A stretch of DNA of 64,000 bases from Micavibrio sp. (GTDB taxonomy: Bacteria; Patescibacteriota; Minisyncoccia; Moranbacterales; GCA-2747515), in assembly GCA_020718085.1 (NCBI GenBank), contig DYDB01000001.1:117902-181901 (forward strand), in the 5' to 3' direction. Every line of letters begins with the position of its first letter. Within the stretch, counting starts at the first letter, position 1. The notes beneath the pieces are model-generated. The model worked only from the letters and a program-made list of their open reading frames with translations, had not been told where the DNA came from and did not search any database. Shown one piece after another: positions 31,106-42,971 of this stretch. The position numbers were made by a program, and so were the translations under genes.

Positions 31106-32101
31106 ATGAATCAACAAATCATAGAATATCTTCAGACAAATAAAACGCAATACACCAAAGAATCGTTGGTTGCACAATTACGTGTTGCAGGGCATGGGGA
31201 AAATGACATTAATGAAGCAGTGAATATGGTCTATGGTGATATGTCTGTGGCACCGGTTAACGAACAACCTGTTAAATATGCAGGATTTTGGATTCGATGG
31301 GTTGCCGCTTTTGTTGATGGGCTCATTGTGGGTATTGCAAGTCTTCCGCTGAGGTTGCTTTTTGGCATTGTTTTGAGTGACATGCCAAGTGCGATCAATA
31401 GTATTTTGCAGAGCGTGATCGGTTTTGGATTACTATGGACATATTATGTTTTTATGACGCATAAGTATCAGGCAACAATAGGTAAGAAATTAGTTGGTAT
31501 TGAAGTGCGTGCAGTTGACGGTGTTGGTAAGGCGGCACTGGGTAACGTTGTGATTCGTGAAACTGTTGGCAAGCTCATTTCTGCAGTCGTTCTATATATT
31601 GGTTACATTATGGCAGGTTTCACATCAAAAAAGCAGGCGTTGCATGACATGATCGGAAGCACTGTTGTGGTGTACAAAGACCCACAGAAAAAAACAAATA
31701 CAGCCGTGATCGCAGTTGTGGTCATTGTTGTTGTTTTTGTGATGATCGCGATCATTGGCATACTTGCATCAATCGTACTTGTGTCACTTAACTCGGCTCG
31801 TGGCAAAGCACAAGATGCGTCTTTCAAAGCCACAGTATCATCAACTGTTCCGATGGCAATGATCTGTATGGATGAAAATCAAAATATTTTACCACCAAGT
31901 GAATATGCAAAAATGTGCAAAATGGGAACTGGTGAGGAATATATATGGCCAATGCTCGATGAAACTGGTGAGTGGGGTACATTGATCGATGGAAATGTGG
32001 CAGATGGCACATTCGCATATACGGCGGAGTTTGCGGAAAGTGGGTTAACGGCCACATGTACACAGCTAGGATGTGAATTTTCTGATGAATCTGTCTACTA
32101 G
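31106..32101 (+). CDS. RDD-family membrane protein fused to a type IV pilin-like C-terminal domain
   Basis: RDD core (WIRWVAAFVDGLIV...KKQALHDMIGSTVVV); then IIGILASIVLVSLNSARGKAQDASFKA (pilin alpha1-helix-like) and C-terminal C..GCEF disulfide-loop-like region. Confidence 0.65.
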   Translation: MNQQIIEYLQTNKTQYTKESLVAQLRVAGHGENDINEAVNMVYGDMSVAPVNEQPVKYAGFWIRWVAAFVDGLIVGIASLPLRLLFGIVLSDMPSAINSILQSVIGFGLLWTYYVFMTHKYQATIGKKLVGIEVRAVDGVGKAALGNVVIRETVGKLISAVVLYIGYIMAGFTSKKQALHDMIGSTVVVYKDPQKKTNTAVIAVVVIVVVFVMIAIIGILASIVLVSLNSARGKAQDASFKATVSSTVPMAMICMDENQNILPPSEYAKMCKMGTGEEYIWPMLDETGEWGTLIDGNVADGTFAYTAEFAESGLTATCTQLGCEFSDESVY

Positions 32102-32328: not shown

Positions 32329-32727
32329 ATGGATGCAATTACTATGAATCAAAAATTGCGTACGATCATCACAGCCCTATTATTTATTGGAAGTGTCGTT
32401 GTCATATCGGTAACGCTGGTTTTGGTCGTGAAAGAAAAACGACGTGCACGCGTAATTCAAGATGAGATCAGTGCATTACAGGAAGAAAAGAAATTATACG
32501 AACACGAAAATAGTGAATTGGCGGATCGTATTGCATATTTGCACTCGGAACACTCCTACGAAAAAGAAGCGAAGAATTTGAACTACAAAAATCCCGGGGA
32601 ACGTGTAGTTGTAATTCGTCGCTCACAAGGGAATAATGACAACGCGCAAATATTGGGTAGCGATACGCAGAAAAGTGATGATGTGGAAAAACCGCATTAT
32701 CGTGTTTGGTTTGATTATTTCTTTTAA
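32329..32727 (+). CDS. ftsB: septum formation initiator (FtsB/DivIC family)
   Basis: N-terminal TM then heptad coiled coil (RVIQDEISALQEEKKLYEHENSELADRIAYL). Confidence 0.7.
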   Translation: MDAITMNQKLRTIITALLFIGSVVVISVTLVLVVKEKRRARVIQDEISALQEEKKLYEHENSELADRIAYLHSEHSYEKEAKNLNYKNPGERVVVIRRSQGNNDNAQILGSDTQKSDDVEKPHYRVWFDYFF

Positions 32728-32739
32728 CAAAAAATTCAT

Positions 32740-33780
32740 ATGACAAGTGTGCACAAAAAGATCTTGGTAATTGGCGGAACGGTTCTTCTCATTTGCATCG
32801 TTTTTATCGGTGTGCTCACATACGTGTTTCGTGTGGACACACCATTGATCACTTATGCGCGACGCATTTTGCATCTACCTGCAATCGTTGTGAATACCAC
32901 GTCGATCTCGATGCAAGAAATAGAGGAAAACACCGCATCAATTAAAAAGTTCTATGAAAATCAGGATTTTTCTTCTTACGGTATTCGCATTGACTTTACA
33001 ACAGAGGATGGTCAAAAACGTCTCAAGATCCAACAAAAGAGAATGCTCAATAAATTGATCGAGGACATTGCAATTGAAGAGATGGCAAAAAAATGGAATA
33101 TCACCATCAGTGATGAGGCTGTGAAAACGGCGATGGATCGGCCGATGAGCGAGGTGGGAACGCGAGATAGTGTAACAGAAAACTTAGAAAATCTCTATGG
33201 ATGGACACTGGATGATTTTGGTCAAAAAGTTGTATATGGACAGTTGTTGCGTGAGAAAGTTACGGCAAAATTTGAGCAAGAAAATATTGCCACGCCTGAA
33301 ATGCATGACAAGATCGCTCAAGCCAAGAAAGAACTTGATGATGGAAGATCGTTTGTGGACACTGCAATGAAGTATTCTGATGGTTCCACTGCATCGGAGG
33401 GCGGTGTAATGGGATGGTTTGCGTCAAATGAATTACAAGATGAGATTGGGAAAAAGATCTTTACAATGGAGAAGGGTGCGTATACTGATGTGATCGAAAC
33501 ACAGTTGGGATTACACCTTGTACGTGTGAACGATATCTCAGAAAAAGATAATGTTAAGTTGGTGCATGTCTCGCAAATTGTCATAAAGAAGCAAAATTTT
33601 GCGCAATATCTCGAAGAATGGATCAAAAAGATGAATGTGAAAATATTTCTCCCACAATACGCGTGGGATGCGCAAACCGGTTTGCTGATCTTTGATGATG
33701 AAGAACTGCAGGTATTTGAAGAAAAAATGCGTGCAGAAGCACTTGAAATGCAAAAAAAAGTAAATCAAGAAAAGAAATAA
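32740..33780 (+). CDS. parvulin-type peptidyl-prolyl cis-trans isomerase (PrsA/SurA-like)
   Basis: N-terminal TM; PpiC domain RSFVDTAMKYSDGSTASEGGVMGWF...GLHLVRV. Confidence 0.75.
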   Translation: MTSVHKKILVIGGTVLLICIVFIGVLTYVFRVDTPLITYARRILHLPAIVVNTTSISMQEIEENTASIKKFYENQDFSSYGIRIDFTTEDGQKRLKIQQKRMLNKLIEDIAIEEMAKKWNITISDEAVKTAMDRPMSEVGTRDSVTENLENLYGWTLDDFGQKVVYGQLLREKVTAKFEQENIATPEMHDKIAQAKKELDDGRSFVDTAMKYSDGSTASEGGVMGWFASNELQDEIGKKIFTMEKGAYTDVIETQLGLHLVRVNDISEKDNVKLVHVSQIVIKKQNFAQYLEEWIKKMNVKIFLPQYAWDAQTGLLIFDDEELQVFEEKMRAEALEMQKKVNQEKK

Positions 33781-33787
33781 TAATTAT

Positions 33788-35041
33788 ATGGAAAACGAAA
33801 ATAATATTGATCAAACAATACACATGAACATGGAAAAAAAACCGGTCAGAGAATCGCGCGTGATGTCACTTATGCTCATGATCGCTATTAGTTTGCTTGT
33901 GAGCATTGTAGGTAGCGCGATCGTGTGCACCTTCGTTTTTGACCGTTATATTCAAAAGTTGGGCACGCAGCAATCAGATCCTGTTGTCAAAAAAGTTGTA
34001 CAAATGCAAGATGATAGTATTGTGGATATGGTGGAAAATGTATCGCCGGCAGTGGTGAGCATTGTAGCAAAAAAAGAAGTGGCACAATATCGTCAAATGA
34101 GCCCGTTCGATCTTTTTTTTGGTGTGCCGCAACAAGAGCAGCAAAATGGACCGAGTGAGAAGCAGAAGGTTGGTGGTGGTACAGGATTTTTTGTATCAGC
34201 AGATGGTATGATCATAACGAATCGTCATGTGGTGGTGGATGCTGATGCGGAATATACAGTTTTGACAAATGACGGCACAGAACATCCAGCTACAGTTCTG
34301 GCGCGTGATGAATATTTGGATTTCGCCGTATTAAAAGTGGAAGGAAATGATTTTACTGCAGTTGAATTGGGAGATTCCAGTGCTATTAAACTTGGGCAGA
34401 CGGTAGTTGCAATCGGCAACTCGTTGGGTGAGTTTTCCAACTCGGTCAGTCGCGGTATTGTTTCTGGTGTGCAAAGAAATATTGTTGCCGGTAGCGGTTT
34501 TGGTGACACAGAAGAATTGACCGATATCATACAAACAGATGCAGCGATCAATTTTGGCAATTCGGGCGGACCACTTCTCGACCTTAATGGAAAAGTGATC
34601 GGTATAAATACTGCTGTGGCGCAAGGTGCGGAGAATATCGGTTTTGCGATCCCGATCAGTCAAGTCATGCGACTGATCGATGATGTGAAGGCGACTGGTA
34701 AGATCTCACGTCCGTTCATTGGCGTGCGATATGTGGCAATGACAGACGAAATACGAAAAGCATTGAATGTATCATATGATTATGGCATTTTGGTTGTGCG
34801 TGGCGATAAGATCACAGATTTTGCGGTGTTACCAGGCTCACCGGCAGATGAAGCAGGTTTGATGGAAAATGATATCATTTTAGAGATAAATGGTGAAAAG
34901 ATCGATGAAACAAATACACTGACAAAAAAAATCGCTGAGCACAGCGTTGGTGATACGATCACATTGAAAATTTGGCATAAGGGTGAGGAAAAAGAAATAA
35001 AGGTCCTCTTGGAGGAAAAAATGGATCTCAACAAAAAATAA
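33788..35041 (+). CDS. htrA: HtrA/DegP family serine protease with PDZ domain
   Basis: TNRHVV (His), DFAVLKV (Asp), GNSGGP (Ser) catalytic motifs; C-terminal PDZ. Confidence 0.9.
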   Translation: MENENNIDQTIHMNMEKKPVRESRVMSLMLMIAISLLVSIVGSAIVCTFVFDRYIQKLGTQQSDPVVKKVVQMQDDSIVDMVENVSPAVVSIVAKKEVAQYRQMSPFDLFFGVPQQEQQNGPSEKQKVGGGTGFFVSADGMIITNRHVVVDADAEYTVLTNDGTEHPATVLARDEYLDFAVLKVEGNDFTAVELGDSSAIKLGQTVVAIGNSLGEFSNSVSRGIVSGVQRNIVAGSGFGDTEELTDIIQTDAAINFGNSGGPLLDLNGKVIGINTAVAQGAENIGFAIPISQVMRLIDDVKATGKISRPFIGVRYVAMTDEIRKALNVSYDYGILVVRGDKITDFAVLPGSPADEAGLMENDIILEINGEKIDETNTLTKKIAEHSVGDTITLKIWHKGEEKEIKVLLEEKMDLNKK

Positions 35042-35068: not shown

Positions 35069-37660
35069 ATGAATATCGATCAATTTACTACAAAATCACA
35101 GGAAGCATTGCAATTGGCGCAGAGTGGTGCAACGCGACGTGAGCATCAGGCTGTTTTGCCATATCACCTTGCAGAGGCGTTGTTGACACAAGATGGCTCG
35201 ATCGTGCCGATCGTTCTCAAAAAAAATGATATTGCATATGCGGACCTTGTGCGAGAAGTTGGAGTGATCATTGATACTTCTGTACCAAAAGTTAAAACGG
35301 AGCAGGGGTCGTCACAAGTGTATATAGCACAGGAGCTGTCTCGCGTGCTTACACAGGCAGAAACAGAGATGAAATTAATGGGAGACACTTTTATTTCCAC
35401 AGAACATCTGATGCTGGGGCTTTTTTCTGCAGATCGTGCGGTACGCGATATGTTTGGGCGATATGGCATTACTTATGACCTTTTCAAAAAAGCGCTTGCA
35501 GATGTGCGCGGAACTGTGCATGTGGATAGTCAAAATCCTGAAGAGACCATGCACATGATCGAGAAGTTCACGATCAATCTTACGGACAAGGCGCGCAAAG
35601 ATGATCTGGATCCAATTATCGGTCGCGATGAAGAAGTGCGACGTGTGATGCAAATTCTTTCACGACGTACAAAAAATAATCCGGTGTTATTGGGTGAACC
35701 CGGTACGGGAAAAACAGCGATCGTGGAAGGGCTTGCACAGCGCATTGTTGCGGGTGATGTGCCAGAATCGCTCAAGGATAAGGAAATTCTCGCACTTGAT
35801 CTAGGTCAGCTTATTGCAGGTGCAAAATTTCGCGGTGAGTTTGAAGATCGTCTCAAAGCTCTCATCAAAGAATTGAACGGTGCATCAGGACGTATGATTC
35901 TCTTCATTGACGAATTGCACACATTGGTTGGCGCGGGAGCAAATGAGGGAGCGATGGATGCGTCAAATATGCTCAAACCGGCATTGGCGCGCGGCGAGAT
36001 TCGCACGATTGGTGCAACAACATTGAAAGAATATCAAAAATATATTGAAAAAGACGCTGCTTTGGAACGTCGCTTTCAACCGGTATATGTGACAGAACCA
36101 TCACCGCAGGATGCTATTGCCATTTTGCGTGGCGTGAAGGAAAAATATGAGTTACATCATGGTGTGCGTATTACAGATGATGCTGTTATTGCAGCGGTGG
36201 ATCTCTCACGTCGATATATTGCAGATCGATTTTTGCCGGACAAGGCAGTGGACTTGATCGATGAAGCAGCGTCTTCCTTGCGTATGGAGATCGATTCTAT
36301 GCCGGCGGAAGTGGATCAAATGGAGCGAAAAATTCGTCGCATGGAAATTGAAAAAAAAGCCTTGCAAAAGGAGAAAAAAAATGGCAATCAAGAAAAGATC
36401 GATAAGATCGATAAAGAGCTTTCAGAGTTGAAAGAACATTCAAAAAAAGTCTTGATGCAGTGGCAAGCGGAAAAAGATATCTTACGATCGATGCACAATT
36501 CAAAAGAATTGATCGAAAAATTGCGTATTGAGGCAGATAATTTGGAACGTACGGGCGATTTTGACAAGGTTGCCGAAATTCGTTACGGCAAGATCCCGGA
36601 AGCGGAACAGGAAATAAAGAAAATACAAGAAAAATTACATGATATTCAAGCGGATGGTGGCATGCTGCGTGAAGATGTAACTGAGAAGGATATTGCGCGG
36701 ATCGTATCCAAGTGGACCGGCGTACCTGTATCAAAAATGCTGGATTCAGAAAAAGATCGACTGACGACAATGGAAGATGTATTGGCACATCGTATTGTGG
36801 GACAAAAAGATGCTGTGAGCGCAGTGTCCAATGCGATTCGTCGTGCGAGAGCGGGTATTTCTGATGAAAGTCGTCCAATCGCCTCATTTATCTTTTTGGG
36901 ACCGACAGGTGTGGGAAAAACTGAGCTTGCGAAGGCATTGGCAGAGTTTCTTTTTGATGATGAGAGGTCACTTGTGAGAGTTGACATGAGCGAATATATG
37001 GAATCACATGCAGTTTCGCGACTGATCGGATCACCGCCGGGATATGTAGGGCATGAAGAAGGGGGACAACTGACAGAGATCATTCGACGCAAACCGTACA
37101 GCGTGATCTTGTTTGATGAGATCGAAAAAGCTCATCCTGATGTGTTCAATATTTTTCTGCAGATCCTGGATGATGGACAACTTACTGACAGCAAGGGACG
37201 TATGGTAAATTTCAAAAATACGGTGATCATCATGACATCCAATGTCGGCTCAGAGGAAATATTTGCCATGCAAAAAGAAGCACAGGAGATCGTGTATGAT
37301 TCTGTCATGCGAGAACTGCAAAGGCGATTTAAGCCGGAATTTTTGAATCGTATTGATGATATTATTGTCTTCCATGCGTTGACAGAAGAGATGATTCGGT
37401 ATATAGTGGATATTCAGTTGGACCATGTGCAAAAAAGATTGCTTGAAGAAAAAATAGGTGTTGAGATCTCGGAAAAAGTACGGATTTTTCTTGCGCAAAA
37501 AGGATTTGATCCGGCATATGGTGCACGACCGCTCAAGCGTGTCATTCAGCGATTGGTGTTGGATCCGCTTGCGATGAAAATTGTTGACGGCAGCATCGGT
37601 GCAGGAAAAAAGGCACAAATCGATGTTGACGGCGACCGTATCGTTATATCAGTAAAATAA
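35069..37660 (+). CDS. clpB: chaperone ClpB
   Basis: 863 aa; two AAA+ modules (GEPGTGKTA and GPTGVGKTE Walker A), middle coiled-coil domain. Confidence 0.95.
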
Positions 37661-38424: not shown

Positions 38425-39573
38425 ATGAAAAAAATTGGAAAAATTTTTATGCTTGTAAGTGCTGTTCTGGTGATCGGTGGCATCGGTGGCATGTTCTTTG
38501 ATTATATCTTTTTTGCACAAATGGTGAACAATCCTACATGGGCCAATAACGATACTGTCAAAACAATGGCCAGTCGTTATCAAGTGATCAAAAATACAGA
38601 AAAAATTATTGTGGAAAATAGCGAATCGATTGCCGATATTGCTTCGCGTGCAGCAACATCTGTTGTATTCGTGGAAGCTGTGAATGCGGAAGGTGTAACA
38701 TCTGTTGGTAATGGTGTTGTGGTGAGCAGTGATGGTGTGATCGCGACAACAAAAACGGTTGTTCCGACAGGGTTTGATACGCAATATGTGAAATATGCCG
38801 ATGGAAAAGTATACACTGTCACAGATGCGTATACGGATGCGTATAGTGGTATTGTGTTTTTGAGAACAGAGGCAAAAGATCTTGCAACGATCTCATTTGC
38901 AAATTCTGACGATGCGCAAAGCGGTAAACAATTGATCAGTATCATGCAACCGCGTGCAGACAATGGTGCGCATTTTTCTGCCGGCGGACTTGTGGGAAAT
39001 ATATATGATTTTGCAACACAAAGTCCGGCAAGTGATCATTTGCAGGGGGTGCTGGATCTTGATTTTTCTGAAACTGTTTTGCAACAAAATATTGGTGCGC
39101 CGGTCGTGGACTATCAAGGTAATATGATCGGTATGATCTCTGTGAAGAAAGATCAGCCAACGGTAGAAGGTGAATATTATGCGATTGCAGCAAATGATAT
39201 CTATCATGCTTTTGAATCATATTTGCGTGCAAAAAATGTTACGGAGGGTGATACTGTCACACAGCCGCTGTTATTGGGCACAGATTATGAGATCATCAAT
39301 GCAATTGATGCACAGATCAAAAAGATCTCTGTGGATCGTGGAGCGATTATTCCTACGCCTGTCACATATCAAGAAAATGTATTATTCAATGCAACAGTAG
39401 CTGCAAAATCGGGCTTGCGTGCCGGTGATGTGATCATTATGGTAAATAACGATGAGGTGAGTCCAAAGAACAATCTCTCGCGTCTTTTGCATAAATATGA
39501 TCGATCACAAAGTGTGAATTTAACGGTTTTGCGTGCGGGAGAGATCATGACCGTGACAATTCCACAGATTTAA
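38425..39573 (+). CDS. HtrA-like pseudoprotease with PDZ domain; catalytic His and Ser replaced
   Basis: Trypsin-like fold alignable to htrA; His position reads TTKTVV (vs TNRHVV) and Ser position reads QNIGAP (vs GNSGGP); C-terminal PDZ GLRAGDVIIMVNNDEV. Confidence 0.65.
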   Translation: MKKIGKIFMLVSAVLVIGGIGGMFFDYIFFAQMVNNPTWANNDTVKTMASRYQVIKNTEKIIVENSESIADIASRAATSVVFVEAVNAEGVTSVGNGVVVSSDGVIATTKTVVPTGFDTQYVKYADGKVYTVTDAYTDAYSGIVFLRTEAKDLATISFANSDDAQSGKQLISIMQPRADNGAHFSAGGLVGNIYDFATQSPASDHLQGVLDLDFSETVLQQNIGAPVVDYQGNMIGMISVKKDQPTVEGEYYAIAANDIYHAFESYLRAKNVTEGDTVTQPLLLGTDYEIINAIDAQIKKISVDRGAIIPTPVTYQENVLFNATVAAKSGLRAGDVIIMVNNDEVSPKNNLSRLLHKYDRSQSVNLTVLRAGEIMTVTIPQI

Positions 39574-39680
39574 GGAGTCATATTGACAGAGAAAGAAAAA
39601 AGTAGTATATTTGAGGGACGCTGGTGACTTCAAAGTTCACTGTAGATTCAGAGCGTAATTTTTATGTTTATTTCAAGACC

Positions 39681-40260: not shown

Positions 40261-41409
40261 TCAATCATTGATCCTCCAGTGTGTTTCCCAGATCAATTGA
40301 GTTAGTTTTGCATATATTTTTTCAGCATGAAGGCGTGTTTCGAGAGGGATGGTTGCGAGTGATCGCATGGCAAAAATGAGCTCACGCGCACCTTTTTCGA
40401 TATCCGTAGGACTCCAACTGATCGGGGCGGTTTCGATGAGTTTTGCTCTCGTTGACCACCACCACGCACAACTTGCCATTCCGCGATCTGCATGTTTACG
40501 AGCCGATATGTAATTTTTATCATCTGCGTGTGCAGTAACTGTCTCAAGTGTGAAGAGAACAAATTTCCATAGGGATGTATGGATCACATTGTCACTGGCG
40601 TTCCAGAGTTTAAATGGATTTTGTTCATTTAATTCTTCTTCAAGTGATTCCCAACTCGCTTCTCGCGGTGTAATTATTTTTTCCTGCTTTAAACTATTCA
40701 TATACTCGGATATAGTTGACATGACAATTGCAGGGTCGGTAAATGCTTTTTTGTAATATCCATGATCATCTTTATGCCAATGTCCGTAAAGTTCACCATC
40801 ATGGGCGATGATAAGTGTTTGGCCATCGATTTCGTCGCGCTGTTCGATGATGGATTGGGGTGGAAATGATTTTGAGAATGATCTGTCTCGAAAAAGCACA
40901 CGTAGACCGTTATGCGCAATTACATAGCGAACAGAATTATCTGGTTTACATTTAGAAATGTGGATCTCATCTAAAATAGTCCATTCAAAGCCCAGTGAAT
41001 ATATAATATCTGCAACCTTTTTACTGTAAGCCATTTCAGGGATGTAAAAACCCTTTGGCTTGTACGCATTTCCAAAAATCCTCTGACTGATCTCCGTATG
41101 TAAAGTGATTTGCCGACGTATTTCTTCATCTGAAAAAAAAGTGAGAATTGGGTGATACATGGCACTGCCAACAAGTTCTATTCTACCCGTTTCTACGAAT
41201 TCACGATATTCATTCAGGATTTTGTGATATCCGTGTGCTTCCATCAATTCCAACAATGAACCGGAAAAGTTCATGGTTAATCGAAGATGTGGGTATTGCC
41301 TCATCAGTTGTGGAATAAACGCGTATGATTCTTTGACGATCTGATCCACGATCTCCTTCGTTTGTGTTGGCGGCTGATAAAGGTGTAAAAAATTTATCCA
41401 TGTGATCAT
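40261..41409 (-). CDS. glycoside hydrolase family 57 (alpha-glucan branching/amylase-like)
   Basis: N-terminal WINFLHLYQPP (GH57 HQP motif region), about 380 aa catalytic domain. Confidence 0.7.
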   Translation of the reverse strand: MITWINFLHLYQPPTQTKEIVDQIVKESYAFIPQLMRQYPHLRLTMNFSGSLLELMEAHGYHKILNEYREFVETGRIELVGSAMYHPILTFFSDEEIRRQITLHTEISQRIFGNAYKPKGFYIPEMAYSKKVADIIYSLGFEWTILDEIHISKCKPDNSVRYVIAHNGLRVLFRDRSFSKSFPPQSIIEQRDEIDGQTLIIAHDGELYGHWHKDDHGYYKKAFTDPAIVMSTISEYMNSLKQEKIITPREASWESLEEELNEQNPFKLWNASDNVIHTSLWKFVLFTLETVTAHADDKNYISARKHADRGMASCAWWWSTRAKLIETAPISWSPTDIEKGARELIFAMRSLATIPLETRLHAEKIYAKLTQLIWETHWRIND

Positions 41410-42971
41410 GTGTGTGGTGTATTACGTAATAACTTAGATTTTCTGATTCGTTCCTGATGGTTCTGTTTTTTGAGTTGGATCGTTACTAAATATAGATCAA
41501 CATATTTCTGGGCAGGAAGTCGCCATGAATTAGCCTCAGAGAGTCCAAAAATACACAGATCCCTCCATGCACGTTTATGTTTAAAATTCTCCAGAGCGCG
41601 AATAATGGCGATGAGCAGATCGGTTGCGTTGTAGCGGTCAAAAGAAAAGCCATTTCCTGTTCTTGTCTGTGGGTCGTAGTCTTCTATGGTATCGGCAAGG
41701 CCGCCAATGTGATGCACAACAGGAATGCATCCATACCGCAAAGCGATCATCTGATTGATGCCGCATGGTTCAAAGCGAGACGGCAAAAGAAATATTTCCG
41801 CTCCGGCATACAATAATGTTTCTTCCTCTTGGTTGAATTTAGTATACGCAACTTGTCCAGGGAATTCTTTTTGCAATTCCTGAAATGATCTGACAGTTTG
41901 ATTGTCACCGTCACCCATAATCAGAAATTGCACACCACGTTGAAGAACATCACGGATAATTTCAAAGATCAGTTTAAACCCTTTTTGTTCGCATATGCGT
42001 GACGTTGTGCATATGAGCGGAATTTCTACATCAACAAAAAGTCCATATCGCATTTGCAGAGCTTTCTTATTGTACTTTTTCAGCCTTACGGATTTGCTAC
42101 TGTAATGTCGAACTAATCCTGGGTCTGTTAGTGGGTTAAAATCATCGTAATCAATGCCATTTACTATACCGAATAAGATATTTTTTTTGCTCTTGAGAAG
42201 TTGATCGAGATCTTCTCCAAATGGTTTTTTGAGTATTTCCTCACGATATGTTTCAGATACTGCATTGATCGCGTCTGCATAGAGAATGGCGCGTTTTGCG
42301 AAATTCAGTCGTTCTATTTTCTTCGTATTTGCAAATAGGGGGAGTTTTGAATGCCCATCGTCGATGCCTTTGGGTGGGATAGTGAACCAATCATGGCCTA
42401 GCTGAAAGGATAAATTATGGATGGTAAAAAGTGTTGCTGTCTTGTCCCAAAACGGATCTTTCTTATAGCGAGTTTTCAAAAGAAAGGGGATCATTCCTGC
42501 ATGCCAGTCATGACAGTGGATGATCGTAGGTGTGAAATTGATCTTTTTCAAGAGAAAAAGTGTCGCAATGTTGAAAAATAGAAATCGTGCATTATCATTA
42601 TCTGCACCATAATATTTTTTATGTTGTCCAAAATACTTTTTATTTTCTATAAAATACACAGGCACCTTTTCAGTTCCAAGTAAACCTTTGCGATAGTAGA
42701 CTTTTTCAAAAACTCCCGGCTCCACTTCAATTTTTTCTACACCTCCGACACGATCAATCGTATAGGTGGCGGTGTCGATCAATTTTTCATAATACGGTGT
42801 AATGATAATGGTATCAATACCCAGATCCTGCTGTGCTCGTGGTAAAGATCCAAGTACACTGGCAAGTCCGCCAGTTTTTGAGAATGGATCTACTTCCGAT
42901 GCGATATGGGCAACGCGCATTTTGAGCATGTTCCGAATGGGATTTTTTTTCATAATGTGTGATACATGCAT
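41406..42971 (-). CDS. glgA: glycogen synthase (GT5); true start probably about 42917
   Basis: MRVAHIASEVDPFSKTGGLASV (KTGGL motif). Confidence 0.85.
   Translation of the reverse strand: MHVSHIMKKNPIRNMLKMRVAHIASEVDPFSKTGGLASVLGSLPRAQQDLGIDTIIITPYYEKLIDTATYTIDRVGGVEKIEVEPGVFEKVYYRKGLLGTEKVPVYFIENKKYFGQHKKYYGADNDNARFLFFNIATLFLLKKINFTPTIIHCHDWHAGMIPFLLKTRYKKDPFWDKTATLFTIHNLSFQLGHDWFTIPPKGIDDGHSKLPLFANTKKIERLNFAKRAILYADAINAVSETYREEILKKPFGEDLDQLLKSKKNILFGIVNGIDYDDFNPLTDPGLVRHYSSKSVRLKKYNKKALQMRYGLFVDVEIPLICTTSRICEQKGFKLIFEIIRDVLQRGVQFLIMGDGDNQTVRSFQELQKEFPGQVAYTKFNQEEETLLYAGAEIFLLPSRFEPCGINQMIALRYGCIPVVHHIGGLADTIEDYDPQTRTGNGFSFDRYNATDLLIAIIRALENFKHKRAWRDLCIFGLSEANSWRLPAQKYVDLYLVTIQLKKQNHQERIRKSKLLRNTPHT

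Follow-up and report, generated by a model that had tools for sequence, protein, structure and literature searches.

A membrane-anchored HtrA homologue without a catalytic triad is paired with a DUF5656 membrane protein in Moraniibacteriota

On the plus strand of the 64,000-nucleotide (nt) window analysed here (contig DYDB01000001.1 of assembly GCA_020718085.1, positions 117,902 to 181,901), positions 38425–39573 hold an open reading frame (ORF) of 382 amino acids (aa), referred to below as psHtrA, which begins with ATG and lies at exactly these coordinates. It encodes what is in all likelihood a membrane-anchored pseudoprotease of the HtrA family. A lysine-rich N-terminus precedes a transmembrane helix (approximately residues 7–30) containing a GG-x-GG motif; there follow a conserved linker (residues 31–66), a trypsin-like domain (residues 67–270) in which the triad positions read T111/G142/I223, and a single, C-terminal PDZ domain (residues 281–382) containing GLRAGDVIIMVNNDEV. 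Two further genes on the same strand are central to what follows: one for a canonical, presumably active HtrA of 417 aa (33788–35041; H147/D178/S259, a transmembrane anchor and one PDZ domain), and one for a 249-aa protein with nine transmembrane helices, DUF5656 (Pfam PF18900; 37667–38416), which lies 8 nt ahead of psHtrA.

An initial annotation of the window, made from the letters alone, had proposed that this ORF is an HtrA homologue alignable to the window's own htrA across the protease domain, with an N-terminal membrane anchor and a C-terminal PDZ domain, and both proposals hold. BLASTP aligned residues 95–373 of psHtrA with residues 131–400 of the canonical HtrA (22% identity over 289 residues, 51 bits, E = 2e-11), spanning protease domain and PDZ domain alike. 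The Pfam model Trypsin_2 matched over its entire length (model positions 1–144 of 144, E = 4e-12), and PDZ_2 (7.5e-9) and PDZ_6 (2.7e-7) each exceeded their Pfam cut-offs. NCBIfam models of HtrA/DegP/DegS matched psHtrA from end to end at only 52–77 bits, far under their cut-offs (best NF047968, 76.6 bits against 470; next TIGR02037, 68.2 bits against 416); the window's active HtrA likewise falls under those cut-offs, yet scores 247–309 bits. When a profile of the psHtrA family was compared with the sequences in the PDB, matches to DegP-like proteins (8e-35) and to HTRA1/HTRA2 (to 1e-29) covered the protein from its N-terminal helix to its PDZ domain inclusive. An AlphaFold2 monomer model, for which the input alignment comprised 46 family members, had a mean predicted local distance difference test score (pLDDT) of 84 and a predicted TM-score (pTM) of 0.73, with the core mostly >86 and the PDZ domain at 86–91. 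All 50 best Foldseek matches of this model in the PDB were HtrA-family proteases (1e-21 to 1e-16), among them DegP, DegQ, MucD and DegS, with a TM-score of up to 0.80 (MucD). The HtrA of its own genome is not the closer relative: HtrAs of other phyla share 29% identity with psHtrA (67 bits), against the 22% and 51 bits given above.

The catalytic residues are gone. In a multiple alignment with canonical HtrAs, which retain His, Asp and Ser in the same columns, H147/D178/S259 of the window's HtrA fall opposite T111/G142/I223 of psHtrA. The His box reads TTKTVV instead of TNRHVV, placing Thr111 at the histidine; the Ser box reads QNIGAP instead of GNSGGP, placing Ile223 at the nucleophile and Gln at the oxyanion glycine (position −2). 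Both substitutions had been recognised in the initial annotation, which called the Asp region ambiguous; here it is resolved (YSGIVFL against YLDFAVL) as Gly142, so that Asp too is lost. Across the family, the canonical G-N-S-G-G-P of loop L1 has given way to a consensus of x-S-V-G-A-P with an insertion ahead of the motif. This insertion, of 3–6 residues beside the lost nucleophile, forms a short helix (216–221) in the AlphaFold2 model. The cleft is thus reshaped, and a polypeptide may fit it still or may not. A HMMER alignment that instead paired Ser328 of HTRA1 with T217 of psHtrA, by placing the gap of loop L1 on its opposite side, was rejected: the T217 column is not conserved, holding T, A or S in the close clade and K, Q or E in the second tier, and it is I223 that precedes a conserved G-[AG]-P anchor.

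This loss is common to the whole family. Among approximately 50 orthologs, the Ser column is occupied by V, I, L, M or A (once E), the His column varies freely without ever holding His, and Gly or Asn fills most of the Asp column; no ortholog has the triad, so the substitutions first noticed in a single sequence are conserved. A second tier of relatives is likewise triad-less. Catalytic His was absent from the ~50 orthologs, from 35 Moraniibacteriota species genomes and from 60 metagenome copies. In the latter, full-length ORFs downstream of DUF5656, the His column held no His (0/60), the Ser column held V (28), L (11), I (10), A (5) and one Ser, and the Asp column held N (47), G (7), D (4) and E (2). 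A better alignment, restoring residues to the catalytic positions, was also looked for, and the family alignment has no position with His or Cys at ≥80%. A HMMER search over 1.84 billion cluster representatives returned 6645 relatives; in the best 150 of these the top-scoring ~70 are triad-less, and H-D-S proteins dominate lower scores only.

A sub-family of the HtrA-like clade without the catalytic His (P0092, P0096, P0098, P0105, P0107, P0112, P0115, P0118, P0119, P0131 and P0134) carries a cytoplasmic N-terminal extension of 20–50 residues starting M..[IV][RK]IKS[IV]. Some of its members retain Asp and/or Ser without His (EDS, QDS, SES, QNS), and these may represent intermediate states of triad loss.

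The orthologs, which were recovered at 42–94% identity together with a second tier at 27–31%, bear the source names Candidatus Moraniibacteriota or Patescibacteria, and the family's reach as established is Moraniibacteriota/‘Parcubacteria group’. Among the best matches it amounts to at least ~100 clusters at 50% identity, and its ORFs are intact in 35 species-representative genomes. Compared with a 94%-identical ortholog, psHtrA had a ratio of nonsynonymous to synonymous substitution rates (dN/dS) of 0.042 at dS 0.64 (Nei-Gojobori), against 0.040 for the rplU product, L21, and 0.023 for DUF5656 in the same comparison; with a 70% ortholog the ratio for psHtrA was 0.13. Purifying selection on psHtrA is thus strong, at the level seen for ribosomal protein L21. 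A rough neighbour-joining tree, built from 164 sequences and open to long-branch attraction, put 98/102 triad-less proteins into one clade that included 0/62 canonical sequences, Moraniibacteriota's own HtrAs being among those outside it. Since the triad-less proteins group in this way, one ancient loss of the triad would fit, within the limits of so crude a method. Family-wide triad loss and a dN/dS of 0.04 uphold the earlier reading of a membrane-anchored pseudoprotease that has kept fold and PDZ domain, and we hold with high confidence that psHtrA is a selected, non-catalytic protein.

The main comparative fact at this locus, overlooked in the initial annotation, is the adjacency of DUF5656. 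Wherever there was enough DNA upstream of psHtrA to tell, a hidden Markov model of DUF5656 found this gene directly upstream and on the same strand (46/46 loci). These loci include eight very divergent members, only ~20–25% identical to the window's psHtrA, in two of which the trypsin domain escapes detection by Pfam. The surroundings of the divergent members are otherwise unrelated, and comprise ClpB, an AI-2E transporter and Wzz, a TraG-like ATPase, radical-SAM and glycolysis genes, and also Wzy; in one of these loci the DUF5656 and psHtrA genes overlap by 4 nt. The reverse test, in which metagenome contigs were scanned starting from DUF5656, gave 72 informative loci, with a triad-less HtrA-like ORF immediately downstream in 70 and an active HtrA in that place in none (0/72). 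The near-invariant partner of psHtrA is therefore DUF5656, rather than ClpB or the active HtrA. In the two loci that differ (L082:2959-3759 and L133:673-1497) the order is PpiC, DUF5656, a non-coding gap of 550–740 nt and an MscS-like channel, with no psHtrA remnant in either gap; this lineage seems to have lost psHtrA and to have retained DUF5656 beside the foldase.

The DUF5656 assignment rests on a Pfam match of 39.4 bits (cut-off 23.3; E = 5.6e-10), and an AlphaFold2 model (ma07b141ead60; pLDDT 91, pTM 0.88) contains nine transmembrane helices, in what may be a new membrane-protein fold. Pfam gave no further match, and neither Pfam nor Foldseek found similarity to TauE, a transporter or an enzyme. 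Invariant residues are D75, N135, a P-F-G-Y-L loop at 191–195, and W245. Because basic residues are concentrated in loops 4–5, 6–7 and 8–9, the positive-inside rule would place the N-terminus inside and the C-terminus outside, and hence the invariant residues on the outer face, the same side as the ectodomain of psHtrA. For psHtrA itself, the lysine-rich N-terminus ahead of its helix predicts an N-terminus inside and an ectodomain outside, a topology known from HtrAs of the Gram-positive type.

Conservation along psHtrA is spread differently from that along an active HtrA. In 30 genomes carrying both, psHtrA scored 2.35 bits/column in the transmembrane helix, 2.61 in the linker, 2.53 in the protease-like domain and 2.52 in the PDZ domain, against 1.83, 1.44, 3.30 (core) and 3.01 for the active HtrA. 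The GG-x-GG of the psHtrA helix is near-invariant, and the linker motif V-I-[NK]-[KN]-T-E-[QK]-[VI] ranks with the best-conserved stretches, although the monomer model gives it a pLDDT of only 46–60. Such high conservation combined with low monomer confidence is characteristic of a segment that makes contacts, either with a partner or within an oligomer. The N-terminal segment that aligns with the trimer-contact region of HTRA1 is also conserved; its aromatic residues are not. The PDZ domain still has its carboxylate-binding loop, L-G-[VIT]-x-Y, as well as the AGL..GD.I..VN region, and these motifs make continued peptide binding by the domain plausible; binding in the cleft or the PDZ groove is argued from motifs.

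Within the window, psHtrA closes a run of head-to-tail plus-strand genes in the order DivIC-like, PpiC, HtrA, ClpB, DUF5656, psHtrA and then rplU, with consecutive gaps of 6–27 nt from the DivIC-like gene to psHtrA (6–8 nt between clpB, DUF5656 and psHtrA). The first encodes a small DivIC/FtsB-like membrane protein (32329–32727; Pfam score 27.0, just below the 28.9 cut-off) and the second a PpiC-type rotamase (32740–33780) which, with its SurA-like N-terminal domain and N-terminal hydrophobic segment, resembles the extracytoplasmic foldases PrsA and PpiD. The ClpB disaggregase gene (35069–37660) is a facultative member. Between the psHtrA stop codon and rplU lies a plus-strand promoter-like site (39583–39611; TTGACA-17-TATATT, 11/12 of the sigma-70 consensus), and this consensus match suggests that the transcription unit of the cluster ends with psHtrA. 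No strong terminator-like site was found within the cluster, strong ones occurring only past rplU, again as judged by consensus. A second 11/12 match at 37379–37407, inside the 3′ end of clpB and ~260 nt before DUF5656, could by the same measure be an internal promoter for the DUF5656–psHtrA pair.

Long contigs, one of them a complete Moraniibacteriota chromosome of 1.29 Mb, repeat this order, as do 35 species-representative genomes. ClpB is present in some lineages only, and many loci have DUF5656 immediately after HtrA; several others read DivIC-PpiC-DUF5656-psHtrA with no HtrA between PpiC and DUF5656. An active HtrA adjoins in most Moraniibacteriota loci and in only 2/8 of the distant ones. 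The initial annotation had rightly placed psHtrA on the same strand after clpB and a ‘small membrane protein’, although the latter proves to be DUF5656, of 249 aa and nine helices; its choice of clpB and the active HtrA as the key context did not stand, given the patchiness of the one and the rarity of the other at distant loci. ClpB as a functional partner of psHtrA was likewise rejected, the cluster being without it in many lineages. In one Moraniibacteriota lineage (L004:4712-5232) only short ClpB-like fragments (41–44% identity) remain between HtrA and DUF5656, and ClpB appears to have decayed there. A relationship of psHtrA to defence systems was also considered and dropped, PADLOC having returned only a weak, generic trypsin-like match.

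The PpiC-HtrA-DUF5656-psHtrA cluster of the Moraniibacteriota type also occurs in a number of metagenome-assembled genomes (MAGs) whose titles read ‘uncultured Bdellovibrionales’ or ‘Micavibrio’ (L010, L012, L014-L018, L021, L022, L024, L028, L031 and L033, by third-party annotation), and those labels are probably wrong. Elsewhere in the window, 31106–32101 encodes an RDD-family membrane protein (Pfam 4e-22) with a long hydrophobic helix, then a SLNSARGKAQDA-type motif in the C-terminal third, then a Cys-containing domain; the motif is, we presume, reminiscent of type IV pilin N-termini, and such a fusion would be unusual. On the minus strand, 40261–42971 holds a GH57-family glycoside hydrolase gene (40261–41409) and a glycogen/starch synthase gene (41406–42971) overlapping by 4 nt, a compact glycogen-metabolism pair in a small genome.

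The reading that we prefer, at roughly even odds (about 0.5), is that psHtrA and DUF5656 form a complex with a role in envelope proteostasis; complex, binding and role are all argued from comparison. An ancient duplication of a transmembrane-anchored HtrA would have given rise to psHtrA; the oxyanion hole and the His-Asp-Ser triad would then have disappeared, leaving a non-enzymatic binding module that was retained. It would most likely form a complex with the nine-helix DUF5656, and the pair may be translationally coupled. Docking on DUF5656 through the conserved GG-x-GG helix and the juxtamembrane linker would put the protease-like cleft and the intact-looking PDZ groove at the outer face of the cytoplasmic membrane, where psHtrA would bind, without cleaving, unfolded stretches or C-termini of exported proteins by way of its PDZ domain and perhaps its vestigial cleft. 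It may thus act as a holdase or adaptor beside the PpiC/PrsA-like foldase and the active HtrA, possibly passing clients to the latter. The function suggested in the initial annotation, a substrate-trapping chaperone or a regulator of the active HtrA, is a plausible guess. A bolder version, tentative and in our judgement rather unlikely, makes psHtrA and DUF5656 a two-component membrane machine specific to the Patescibacteria/Candidate Phyla Radiation (CPR), in which the dead HtrA would be the substrate-recognition ectodomain of a nine-helix protein of new fold. If true, the machine could be, for example, an insertase, a holdase or an export-quality-control device replacing envelope proteostasis factors missing from reduced genomes.

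Several observations weigh against the proteostasis complex. The L1 insertion could occlude the cleft of psHtrA. DUF5656 occurs without psHtrA in 2/72 loci, and so can exist alone. No fold relative of DUF5656 was found in the PDB (best Foldseek E 0.6, TM-score <0.3), and a literature search returned no paper that mentions it; it may therefore have nothing to do with protein folding. Mirror-tree correlations among psHtrA, DUF5656 and HtrA are all r ~0.8 and do not set DUF5656 above HtrA, and the partial correlation of psHtrA with DUF5656 is 0.35, against 0.53 for psHtrA with HtrA given DUF5656. This last value would suit a rival in which psHtrA, like MamO, regulates in trans, docking on or mixing with the active HtrA and tuning its proteolysis while DUF5656 is a bystander or scaffold. 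Both in the window and at most Moraniibacteriota loci the active HtrA does share the operon, and the profile alignment reaches the N-terminal segment that makes the HtrA trimer contacts; there are precedents, moreover, in the non-catalytic activation of MamE by MamO (PMC4794232) and in the degenerated domain of DEG7 that mediates trimerisation (PMC3194040). We nevertheless consider it unlikely, given that no active HtrA lies within 6–7 kb in 6/8 distant loci, that several clusters have no intervening HtrA while DUF5656 adjacency is near-universal, and that psHtrA is not closer to its own genome's HtrA than to those of other phyla. A similarly low probability attaches to DUF5656 being a transporter or enzyme outside protein quality control, with psHtrA as an accessory ectodomain that gates or regulates it in the manner of a lid, a sensor or a subunit for ligand binding. 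The near-obligate pairing in contexts as varied as AI-2E transporter, Wzz, Wzy and TraG-like genes would suit such a subunit, as would invariant polar and aromatic DUF5656 residues on what the positive-inside rule makes the outer face, and in MamO a dead protease domain is indeed fused to a TauE-type transporter domain. Yet the commonest wider context consists of the proteostasis genes PpiC, HtrA and ClpB, both DUF5656 loci that lack psHtrA retain PpiC upstream, the peptide-binding motifs of the PDZ domain are kept, and Pfam and Foldseek showed no resemblance of DUF5656 to a transporter or enzyme.

Two further rivals concern psHtrA alone, and both fare worse. Bare absence of the triad from this single sequence is all that could point to a sequencing or assembly error, or to a freshly inactivated HtrA pseudogene, and that explanation is refuted by identical loss in >100 independent assemblies, by the dN/dS of 0.04 and by ORFs intact across the 35 species genomes. 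It is very improbable, too, that psHtrA is a hydrolase with a non-canonical catalytic apparatus elsewhere in the fold. S102, S161, S203, D103, D138 and D213 are conserved, and some distant sub-families hold Asp and Ser without His, but there is no family-wide His, Cys or catalytic-type Lys, the conserved Ser and Asp sit in motifs that are structural in canonical HtrAs (FANSDDA against LGDSSAI), the oxyanion Gly is replaced and the nucleophile column is almost always aliphatic. A non-catalytic psHtrA in complex with DUF5656 remains the reading that we favour.

To our knowledge, HtrA-derived pseudoproteases have been recognised in only a few special cases, MamO in magnetosomes and an internal domain of DEG7/Nma111. 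A literature search found no description of the psHtrA family, of an HtrA pseudoprotease in CPR/Patescibacteria or of the pairing with DUF5656, and psHtrA is accordingly presented as a new, large and old family of HtrA-derived pseudoproteases with a new, dedicated membrane partner. Its homologs circulate publicly under the names ‘S1C family serine protease’, ‘serine protease Do’ and ‘trypsin-like peptidase domain-containing protein’; names of the serine protease type are misleading for these proteins. The host organisms are ultra-small, with genomes of ~1 Mb from which dispensable genes are discarded, and against that background it is notable that selection on a dead HtrA matches in strength the selection on a ribosomal protein. 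For DUF5656 the pairing provides a first functional handle, tying it, by context, to extracytoplasmic folding and quality control. The family is also a natural experiment on what the HtrA scaffold can do without proteolysis, and so bears on the question of protease versus chaperone.

With HtrA/DegP/DegS (MEROPS S1C; for example E. coli DegS, the transmembrane-anchored HtrAs of Gram-positive bacteria and M. tuberculosis Rv1223), psHtrA shares fold and domain order, and it retains the PDZ carboxylate-binding loop motif. It departs from them in lacking, as a family, the triad and the oxyanion Gly, in the small L1 insertion, in a transmembrane helix and linker conserved as strongly as the domains, in forming a clade of its own and in its near-obligate DUF5656 neighbour. 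psHtrA descends from HtrA/S1C proteins and works in their manner, but since the defining catalytic features fail it is to be filed as a non-peptidase homolog of HtrA/S1C and not as a member enzyme. Among degenerate relatives, plant DEG7 and yeast Nma111 have an HtrA protease domain that was duplicated, ceased to be catalytic and became specialised for protein–protein interaction (PMC3194040). The inactive domain of DEG7, however, sits in cis, in one chain with an active domain, and homotrimerises a soluble eukaryotic enzyme, whereas psHtrA is bacterial, anchored in the membrane and encoded separately, and has a PDZ domain and a dedicated membrane-protein neighbour of its own. MamO comes nearer: this pseudoprotease of the HtrA family has a degenerate active site whose oxyanion position is not Gly, it activates MamE non-catalytically, and in the same polypeptide it has a TauE membrane domain and a surface di-His motif through which metal is bound (PMC4794232). 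psHtrA resembles it in the degenerate triad and non-Gly oxyanion residue, in being retained near an active paralog (MamE, in the case of MamO) and in its association with a multi-pass membrane module. The two differ in that psHtrA has no match to NF040961 (which the window's active HtrA matches at 2e-17), has no conserved His in its family and hence no di-His motif, and ends in a PDZ domain, an arrangement that MamO lacks; its membrane partner DUF5656, moreover, is a separate gene product of unmatched fold. psHtrA and MamO arose independently, and by analogy MamO may be taken as the closest functional precedent for psHtrA.

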